Shown: positions 36,001 through 39,000, counted from the stretch's first letter. The stretch: 64,000 nucleotides of DNA from Armatimonadota bacterium (GCA_037444405.1 JBBIML010000006.1:128001-192000), one strand, 5' to 3'. Made by a program: the numbers.

Positions 36001-39000
36001 GATACGCGCATGATAACGTGCGTAGAGCACCTCGAATGCCCCCGCATCGCCCTCTCTGGCACGCTGTACCAGCTCCGTGTCGGACCGTGTATTCAACCCC
36101 TGCCCTTCCTGAACGAATAAGATATTAGCATGGTTCCTTTTGGCGCGGGTAATGGCAGACACGGATAAGGGCGCGGGCACCGTGCCCCTACTCGGAACGG
36201 CTTCAGCTGGTCTGTTGCAAAGAGGGCAGGCGTTCACAAGCGGGGTGCGGGAACCGCACCCTACAGGCATGCGGCATGGGTAGGGGCGCGGTCGCCGCGC
36301 CCCCAAAGCGGCGAAACCCGCTGTGCCCAAAAGGTGGAACGAGCATCCTTGCAACAGAGCAGATTCAGCCGTCTTGTTCAGGAGCGAATTGCTGGATCGC
36401 CTCCGAGAGCTAACATCCCGCGCCGAACTCGAACAGCACTGTTAGCAGATCGGTGTCGTCCACGATGCCGTCGCGATTGACATCGCCTGCGAGCGCGGAG
36501 CCTGTTTGCCCGAACTCGAACAGCACGGTCAGCAGGTCGGCGTCATCCACACAGCCGTCGGCGCTGGTATCACCGTAGCGCCGCACAAGCGCAATCGCGC
36601 TGACCTCCGTTGAAGACCGCCCGAACGCGCCCAGATTGGCGTTGCCCGCATGGGTGATACGCACGAACTGCGCCTGATCGATCTCGACGGGCTGACCCGT
36701 TTGCCAGTCCACCGCCCACTCCAGCTGGAAGGCGTCCCCACCCGCCGAGAGACCCTGAATACCTGGCGTGAACGGGTCATCGGGCACGAGCGGATGCCCC
36801 TGATTGGTGATGGGCGTGATGTCGGCATAGCCCACGATGGGCGTCGGGCATACGCTGAGCGAGCCGAACCACTGGTCGGGCAACGGGAAGCGCGGGACAC
36901 CTGTTGCATCACGCGGGTCGGGATGACGCGGCAGCAGCAGGTACCAGTCGTCGCCACCATCGGGGACGCCGTTGCCGTTTCGGTCGATACCGACTTCCAC
37001 ATAGCCTGGCTCGCCCCACACCTGACAGGGGTTGCCGCCCACATAGAAGGCGTTGCCAAACACAATCAGGTCGTAGCCGTCGGGATTGTGCGGGTCAAGC
37101 CCTGCGGGCAGGTTCTGGATGGGGCGGTCGAAGCCCACCTCGACGAAACCGCCCCATCCGAAGGAGAAGAGCTTGGTGTTATCGGGCACGCCTGGCGTCG
37201 CGTTCGGCGGCGGATAGCCCAGCACCTGTGTCGGGTCGGTGTTGAAGCCCGGCGCACCGTTGACGCCGCTCCAGCCGAACACGCGCGTGGCGAAATCGCG
37301 CTCAGCGAAACTGCCCCGATACTGGGCGCTCACTGACGCGACGGCGATCACCAGCCCGATAGCAACCAGCTCGCGTGCGGGCATGGTTCACCCCTTCAGG
37401 CGCGATGGGCCCTGCGGCGACGCCAGCCGAGCGCCATCAGCCCCGCCATCAGCATGCCGAGCGTGCCCGGCTCCGGCACGGGCGTGATGGCGAACAGCCC
37501 GCCCACCTCCGTGAAGCTGCCGTCCACGATTAACAGCCCGTCGCCGCTGAACGGCTCGAAGCGCGCGCCGAAGTAAGCCACGCTCGCTGGAAACGGATAC
37601 GCGCCGCTGAAGATGCCAAACGGCGTCGCCGTCGACCCGCGCAACTGCGTGAGCGTGCGACCCGTGCTGGCGATTAAATCGCCCTCCGAATCGAAGGCGA
37701 ATCCCACCAGCCCGGAGCCGCCCCCACCTGCGAGCGAGAGCGCCTCGACGAGCGTGGCGCCGATCAGCAAGCCGTCGCTGTCGAAGTGCGGCTCGTAGCG
37801 CAGCACCTGACCCGGATTGCCCGCGAAGAGCGGGTCGTTCGTATCGCCCAGATAGAGCCAGCCGCCGCGCAGGCTCACGCCGCTCGCGTAGCCGTTGCCG
37901 TAGCCGCTGACAATCACGCTGGCAGCGCCGTTCGCCACACGATAGAGCCGATTCGCGCCGGGTCCATCTGCGCCGAGCGCCAGCACCTGATTGCCCAGAA
38001 TGAACACATCCGCCGCGTTCGGGATGGCGCCTTCGGGCGCGAGCGGGGCGACGCCCGTGCCGATGCGCCACTCCAGCACGGTGTCCAGATCGCCGTTCTC
38101 GGAGAAGACCAGCGTGTTCTCGTCGCGCCAGGCAAGCCCGCCAAAAAATTGCCAGCGGCTGTCGCTGATGGCGGCGACCACCTGACGCCCGTCGGGGCGA
38201 ATGCGGTCATACACGGTAATCTCTGCGCCTCCGCCGAACCGACCGCGTGCGACCGCCAGCTGCCCGGAGGGGCTGACGGCAACGACGCCGCCGCTCAGCT
38301 CCAGCGAGAAGGCGCGATAGCCTGTCGGCGGGCTATAACCCGCCACCTGCGAACCTGCATGCTGCACCCACAGCAGCGTTAGCCCGATAAGGATGCTTCG
38401 TCCGTTCATCGCATGACCTCCTTTCTGTGGGTGCGGGTTTAAAAGCAACACGCGCCCGACGCTCGGTCAGGCGCGTTCAGGGCAAAAAGCGGATTTGCGC
38501 TATTTCCCTGACCGCACCCTGTGCTTCGCAGGGCTGCTCCCGATAGGGAGCGCGGTCGACCGTGGCTGGGCATTCGGGCTTGTCCCCTCTGCGCCTTCGG
38601 GGCGGCAGGAGGCTTACCGTTGCGGCACAGCGCCGGACTCTCACCGGACTTCCCCCAACTCGTCTCAAAAGCGGCTTTTGAGACATAGCCCCAGCACGAC
38701 CTGGGGCGCACACGGTCTTTAGATGCGCAGGGGCGAGGCGACCTCGCCCCCTCTCACAGCCCACGATAGATGGGTTAATCATACCCGCTCCGCAGATATC
38801 GAATCGACTCGCGGGTAATCTGTTCGGGATCGGGCGTGTAATCGAGCGGCTCCAGCGAACACCAGCCGGCGTAGTTCACCTCGCGCAACGCCTGCAGGAT
38901 CGGCGCGAAGTCGGTCGGTCCGAAGCCTGGCGCGCGCATATCTCTGTCGTTCAGATGCACATGGCGCAGGTAGGGCGCATAGTGGCGGATGAGCGCGGGC

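Follow-up and report, generated by a model that had tools for sequence, protein, structure and literature searches.

BtuH-type capture of cobalamin (B12) has so far been studied in gut Bacteroidota, where it is tied to the receptor BtuB and to TonB. As far as the accessible text of these sources goes, over 80% of the btuH genes in the gut lie in one operon with btuB (PMC8941943), and the propeller protein BtuG is seven-bladed (PMC10404256, PMC13616437). In BtuH2, residues N399, E406, D522, S582 and E584 hold two metals at the B12 phosphate (PMC13616437), and the corrin ring is contacted by Y510, W511, W577, H476, Q333 and F401 (PMC8941943). A 2026 review, in its accessible part, counts the role of BtuH among the unknowns (PMC13616437).

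The window analysed here is a 64,000-nucleotide stretch from an Armatimonadota bacterium (GCA_037444405.1), with positions counted from its first letter. Going by the names that the closest homologues bear in the databases, the host belongs to the Armatimonadota, order Fimbriimonadales; its genome is 98.9% complete. The window holds two neighbouring genes for secreted proteins behind a cobalamin riboswitch. We consider it likely that this pair is a B12-repressed surface module for corrinoid capture in a B12 auxotroph.

The operon and its cobalamin riboswitch

Both genes lie on the minus strand. ORF A (37396-38409) is preceded by AGGAGG and encodes 337 residues comprising a signal peptide, a six-bladed beta-propeller (about residues 28-310) and a PEP-CTERM exosortase tag. 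Its stop codon is followed after 11 nt by the start of ORF B (36410-37384), whose 324 residues form a signal peptide, a BtuH-fold domain (about residues 21-268) and a dockerin-like tail. The flanking genes were considered as members of the module and rejected, since the neighbourhood varies between relatives: neither the downstream ECF sigma and anti-sigma genes nor the upstream isomerase and ilvC are conserved at the relatives' loci, except for the upstream side in the nearest relative. On the same strand, 3' of ORF B, positions 34077-36129 hold an ECF sigma factor, a zinc-finger anti-sigma and a MucB/RseB-like gene, and a large AAA/TPR/BTAD transcriptional regulator of MalT/SARP-like type lies on the plus strand at 30588-34070.

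The riboswitch aptamer (38548-38708, minus strand) is a short form with a reduced P6 extension. The survey had cautioned that its score barely exceeds the cut-off, and the margin is indeed slim, at 31.6 bits for RF00174 against a gathering cut-off of 31.5. This low score is due to the short P6 extension; orthologous leaders in relatives score 24-78 bits, and the riboswitch core, with P4-P6 and the B12 box, is conserved across 15-17 relatives. The low score notwithstanding, the riboswitch is genuine. It is the sole Rfam match within the window, and the claim of a single B12 riboswitch stands, as no second cobalamin riboswitch was found in the host genome. Among 17 leaders, the P4, P5 and P6 pairs are near-invariant. 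The P13 hairpin (38517-38533, minus strand), supported by covariation in 17 sequences, bears the loop GCA, able to kiss the aptamer loop L5 (UGC). Three of its five pairs show changes in both partners, and kissing pairs between L5 and L13 are formed in 92% of cells across the 17 sequences. Paired cells amount to 95.1% in the 17 leaders versus 89.2% after shuffling, with the structure drawn on the window's own sequence, which biases the slide control.

Downstream, a predicted antiterminator (38470-38518, minus strand) obtained from constrained folds would overlap both the 3' strand of P13 and the 5' arm of an intrinsic terminator-like hairpin. The latter, located by a hairpin scan at 38450-38476 on the minus strand, has 11 pairs and is followed by GTTGCTTTT. 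Constrained folds of the platform give -48.3 kcal/mol for the OFF state and -44.8 kcal/mol for the ON state, a difference of 3.5 kcal/mol, and both arms of the antiterminator recur in the rows of family f1. Because the scan is expected to yield 1.5 such sites by chance, support for the terminator comes from its position and conservation. No sigma-70 promoter consensus was found upstream. The stretch from the upstream isomerase gene to the aptamer contains a G+C-rich hairpin that lacks a T run (38730-38752, minus strand), and a TATGAT hexamer overlaps the end of the isomerase gene. Regulation of the pair by B12, proposed at the outset, is supported by the RF00174 match, by the conserved structure of the leader and by the position of the riboswitch in relatives. 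The known behaviour of this riboswitch class suggests that B12 turns transcription off. When cobalamin is scarce, the antiterminator would form and both genes would be transcribed. Bound cobalamin would fix the L5-L13 kiss, the terminator would form, and transcription would stop; the structure itself is shown by its conservation.

A BtuH-fold protein beside a PEP-CTERM propeller

The reported resemblance of ORF B to two BtuH structures is borne out. Its sequence matches 8BLW with E 5.3e-12 and 7BIZ with E 1.5e-4, and a profile of 39 ORF B sequences brings these values to 2.9e-33 and 2.8e-24. The predicted model (pLDDT 93) aligns to 8BLW_B with a VIA Z of 18.9 (rmsd 2.4, 193 aligned) and to 7BIZ_B with a Z of 17.7 (rmsd 3.4, 193 aligned); Foldseek gives E 2.2e-13 and 3.6e-9 for 8BLW and 7BIZ. 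An offset of 100 was used to map the BtuH2 residues; Y510/W511 and W577/L578 of the 7BIZ chain bear it out. In the alignment, the metal ligands N399, E406, D522, S582 and E584 of BtuH2 correspond to N111, E125, D188, S258 and E260 of ORF B, which are kept in 39, 36, 35, 36 and 35 of the 39 family rows, respectively. Among the corrin-ring contacts, F401 is kept as F113, while W577 and Q333 are not, W577 aligning to A253 in a variable column. Y510, W511 and H476 fall within insertions where the alignment to ORF B is unreliable. ORF B is a BtuH-fold protein with a two-metal site, and its fold and ligands make B12 binding likely. It would hold cobamides by the nucleotide loop through this site.

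The tail of ORF B (residues 269-324; 36413-36580, minus strand) was described as dockerin-like by the survey, and this holds for its fold, which aligns to dockerins (2OZN_B, 2Y3N) with a Z of 7.8 (rmsd 1.7, 53 aligned). Its profile matches stay below the Pfam and NCBIfam cut-offs, with 15.3 bits for PF00404 (E 0.024; cut-off 22.9) and 17.4 bits for NF041540 (E 0.004; cut-off 29). Nor is the tail specific to ORF B: its motif occurs on 33 ORFs of the host genome, a few of them contig-end fragments. The ORF B orthologues of three relatives (G025, G029 and G037) are tailless, and other BtuH homologues have PEP-CTERM in its place. The tail, a lineage-wide tag, thus behaves as an exchangeable part and probably serves as an anchor.

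ORF A ends in a C-terminal PEP motif, a transmembrane helix and a basic tail (PF07589, E 7.6e-7; both PF07589 and TIGR02595 above cut-off), and the host genome has two exosortase matches (PF09721). Signal peptides and anchor tags on both proteins support their proposed location at the surface. Both would be secreted, the propeller tagged for exosortase by its PEP-CTERM end and ORF B held by its dockerin-like tail. The ORF A model (pLDDT 90.5) arranges 24 propeller strands in six blades. Its best folds among the matches listed are six-bladed NHL/SMP-30 propellers with Z between 23 and 25, none of them outstanding, and the top structural matches among those listed include lactonases, NHL domains and a Diels-Alderase. 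Its Atlas neighbours are NHL/SGL clusters. The survey had likewise described an NHL-like PEP-CTERM propeller. The protein has no cysteine, and its net charge of -3.9 per 100 residues is ordinary among the PEP-CTERM proteins of the host. A PDB sequence search returned no match up to E 10. ORF A was considered as a BtuG and rejected: BtuG has seven blades and ORF A six, it carries PEP-CTERM and is not a lipoprotein, and the operon has no receptor gene. BtuG entries are absent from the best 50 rows of each of two fold searches, an absence that excludes nothing. The profiles of ORF A and ORF B show no relation to each other. A complex prediction for ORF A with the BtuH domain (score 0.01, mark 0.32) carries no weight either way on binding.

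What the propeller does is best approached through its context. From its regulation and from the fusions described below, it would be a second binder or a hand-over partner, analogous to BtuG and apparently not homologous to it, and the chances that it binds B12 itself are about even. The propeller might instead be a B12-repressed SMP-30/NHL enzyme or scaffold at the surface, such as one releasing corrinoids from their carrier proteins, with ORF B capturing B12. This is possible, if not what we expect. The lactonase, NHL and Diels-Alderase matches and the NHL/SGL neighbours fit it well, and three invariant acidic residues (E104, D189, D192) could bind a metal. However, no Pfam or NCBIfam model other than PEP-CTERM recognizes ORF A, aromatic residues (W86, F88, Y174, F195, F267, F273) abound among the conserved positions, which suits a ligand pocket, and in each of the 27 genomes tested the riboswitch stands directly over the propeller gene.

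Co-occurrence, fusions and a possible prepilin-type partner

Relatives were compared at the level of the order (41 genomes) and of the phylum (251 genomes). The propeller is found in 16 of the 41, and BtuH in 17, that is, in the same 16 and in G015, a genome that is 87% complete. In 16/16, the propeller has the riboswitch directly upstream (above cut-off in 11), and the two genes are adjacent in 10. In the other six, BtuH lies outside the operon, at loci where a riboswitch core motif was not found. The association that the survey had seen in 10 of 18 genomes is therefore stronger here. Across the phylum, the propeller occurs in 13 genomes and BtuH in 21; each of these 13 also encodes BtuH, next to the propeller in 10. 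In 11 of 11 further phylum genomes the propeller comes behind the riboswitch, and where BtuH occurs alone, it has a riboswitch within about 2 kb upstream (8/8). One genome (G062) has the two genes separated, with a riboswitch over each. Kin are not independent in these counts, and the pattern spans several families.

Among 36 near-full-length propeller representatives, six have BtuH in the same frame. Five of these keep an internal PEP-CTERM, an arginine run and a second signal-like stretch and may have an internal start, and P0079 is a direct propeller-BtuH fusion resembling BtuGH. Single frames running from signal peptide through propeller, PEP-CTERM, arginine run, second signal-like stretch and BtuH to an anchor are seen in G004:C34 (L083:448-2640), L138:4845-6824, L140:237-2027, P0076, P0091, P0104 and P0106. 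They are candidate polyproteins that could be cut by exosortase and signal peptidase. Another arrangement is found in P0145 (2231 aa), where an N-terminal BtuH domain is followed by a propeller and Ig-like domains. At G037:C47:128380-129326 (L015, L018), the propeller gene is split into two frames near its 3' end, by a frameshift or an assembly error, and is followed by a tailless BtuH. At G008:C12 (L086:7419-8423), the small chain of a class I ribonucleotide reductase, which is B12-independent, lies 800 nt 3' of a riboswitch-led propeller on the same strand.

Co-occurrence and single-frame fusions support a functional link between ORF A and ORF B. The survey's idea of a B12 capture pair is thus upheld as regards the link; the propeller, for its part, does not appear to be a BtuG homologue, and its share in B12 binding is drawn from context. 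No published description of the module was found in listings drawn mostly from outside the subscription journals; such proteins may appear in the homologue tables that accompany PMC8941943 and PMC13398666. The accessible parts of PMC13398666 and PMC12751083 do not describe it.

The riboswitch regulon extends beyond the pair, to a third part that the survey did not mention. In 17 of the 20 riboswitch-bearing genomes of the order without a propeller, a prepilin-type (DUF1559-like) gene follows the riboswitch at 30-278 nt, and the remaining three loci run into contig breaks. The gene order is riboswitch, propeller, BtuH, prepilin in G025 and G029. The host orthologue of this prepilin (C11:145764-146543; 54% identity, E 4e-63) lies beside rho, matching PF07963 above cut-off and PF07596 just below. 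Orthologues with E 2.6e-63 or better occur in 16/41 genomes, exactly the BtuH set minus G027, and in 15 of the 16 pair-bearing close relatives. No riboswitch core was found at these 16 loci, and the host copy has no riboswitch of its own. The other B12-linked prepilin type is present in 17/41 genomes, and no genome has both. Of the host's 35 prepilins, C11:145764-146543 is the best match for 15 of the 17 riboswitch-led ones. A quick tree built without the G008 prepilin supports each B12-linked type (SH-aLRT 97-98), with a support of 0 for their joint branch. Of 10 distant loci, 5 have a prepilin behind the module, and the other five have none adjacent. Four of the 8 BtuH-only genomes have it between the riboswitch and BtuH, and one query found no prepilin match at E 1e-20 in 7 of the 13 phylum pair genomes. 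Within the order, the DUF1559 prepilin-type gene is the most constant member of the regulon.

The host (G000) encodes at least 35 prepilin-type proteins and has 22 PEP-CTERM motif matches. At G033:C1:210131-214357 (L078), two cobalamin riboswitches occur in series; one stands before metE, the other leads a prepilin gene and a gene for a PEP-CTERM protein of 207 aa. This PEP-CTERM protein, encoded behind the prepilin in G030 as well as in G033, belongs to no known family, has no match among solved structures and was found in only these two of the 41 genomes. We found no papers that give the DUF1559 family a ligand.

These distributions also bear on whether the pair simply stores or sequesters corrinoids at the surface, as a reservoir or in competition, with B12 reaching BtuF/BtuCD by a general route and no dedicated outer-membrane step. 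The 17 genomes with a riboswitch-led prepilin, in which neither pair protein was found, speak for this: the pair is dispensable in that lineage, since the riboswitch controls the prepilin there without it. The BtuF-like and BtuC-like genes of the host are likewise unlinked. Storage nevertheless seems unlikely, because nearly the whole order keeps a prepilin, either behind the riboswitch or in company with the pair, and such retention suggests a dedicated step.

Possible routes of entry and relation to the Bacteroides systems

The demand for B12 in the host is clear. Its genome encodes both methylmalonyl-CoA mutase subunits and a PduO-type adenosyltransferase, and CobS was not found in it. The BtuF-like and BtuC-like genes score below their equivalog cut-offs. 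As the survey had reported, ExbD and TonB_C have no matches in the host genome. The one PF01618 match is flagellar MotA, adjoining a MotB-like gene. ExbD is found in 1 of the 41 order genomes, a rarity that fits the one Armatimonadetes genome for which TonB is reported in the accessible part of PMC12204202. The broader statement that the cell has no BtuB or TonB system goes too far: although ExbD and TonB were not found, a receptor-like barrel is encoded, together with the BtuF-like and BtuC-like proteins. This barrel (C11:71893-73869; PF00593, E 5.9e-35) is the only TonB-receptor-like plug and barrel gene of the host. It was rejected as a BtuB equivalog, with 98.6 bits for the B12 receptor model TIGR01779, its best NCBIfam match (cut-off 599.7), and 69.1 for PRK10641 (cut-off 836). 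The barrel occurs in 26/41 order genomes. Its operon (G000:C11:68252-73869, L092) includes a receiver domain, a PF04392 binding protein and a Cache histidine kinase, and is kept in 23 of 24 family members, in which ExbD was not found.

B12 could in principle enter through this barrel, acting as a BtuB without any recognizable motor, and the prepilin would then be incidental. The plug and barrel domains, the choice of TIGR01779 as best model and the presence of the gene in 11 of the 16 pair-bearing genomes point that way. We consider it quite improbable, however. The score is far below the cut-off, no riboswitch stands over the barrel, and ExbD and TonB_C were not found. The gene sits upstream of the PF04392 binding protein and the Cache histidine kinase, with the same neighbour at 7 of 11 loci. 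Genus g3 lacks the pair, yet all 13 of its genomes have the barrel; in five pair-bearing genomes (G025, G027, G029, G032, G037) the barrel was not found. The barrel is possibly a motor-free sensing receptor.

Corrinoid capture by the pair would then be followed by import without a TonB motor. The likeliest partner would be the DUF1559 prepilin at C11:145764-146543, together with the BtuF-like and BtuC-like proteins of the inner membrane, by a mechanism that is speculative. Seven host ORFs carry a Walker motif of the PilB/PilT/GspE-like kind, so filament machinery is probably present. Pilin-driven, TonB-independent import is a plausible but tentative proposal. Equally tentative is its fuller form for the order, in which a DUF1559 prepilin in a type IV filament would collect cobalamin from interchangeable binders and draw it to BtuF/BtuCD. 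The binders would be BtuH and the six-bladed propeller, the latter a new B12-binding fold. The prepilins would be of two mutually exclusive types, and a propeller-BtuH polyprotein would be cut by exosortase and signal peptidase in some lineages. It is very improbable that the operon is a B12-independent substitute, or that it has a surface role unrelated to corrinoids, such as carbohydrate binding, and is simply repressed by B12: the next structural neighbours of ORF B are indeed CBM32 carbohydrate-binding modules, and cobalamin riboswitches also govern B12-independent isozymes such as metE in G033, but CBM32 reaches a Z of at most 8.4 against 17.7-18.9 for BtuH, and the phosphate-binding metal ligands are conserved.

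The module associates a BtuH domain bearing different anchors with an apparently non-homologous propeller, in cells with no detected TonB motor. Of the 35 DUF1559 prepilin paralogues it marks one as B12-linked, so that both the role of this large family and TonB-independent B12 import can be tested directly.

Set beside BtuH1 and BtuH2 of Bacteroides thetaiotaomicron (BT1488/BT1956, 7BIZ), ORF B shares the fold, the five metal ligands, F401, secretion and a cobalamin riboswitch. It differs from them in having neither lipoprotein cysteine nor PKD domains, in its dockerin-like tail, in the loss of W577 and Q333, and in the absence of btuB from the operon. BtuG1/BtuGH (BT1490, 8BLW), a propeller fused to a BtuH domain that forms the lid of BtuB1, has the same order of propeller then BtuH that is seen here in neighbouring genes and in relatives in one frame. 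BtuG caps BtuB, whereas the six-bladed, PEP-CTERM-tagged ORF A has no BtuB partner under the riboswitch. Within the DUF1559 (PF07596) proteins with prepilin N-terminal methylation, one orthologue among the 35 host paralogues tracks the B12 module. The extracellular Btu relay of Bacteroides (BtuJ, BtuH, BtuK, BtuG, BtuB, BtuFCD), as set out in the accessible part of PMC13616437, likewise involves several riboswitch-co-regulated surface proteins in an auxotroph. Unlike that relay, the present module has no TonB motor that could be found, uses exosortase and dockerin-like anchors, and has a DUF1559 prepilin in BtuB's place in the regulon. It would work in the manner of the Bacteroides relay, yet, judged on the features tested, it is no BtuG/BtuB system.
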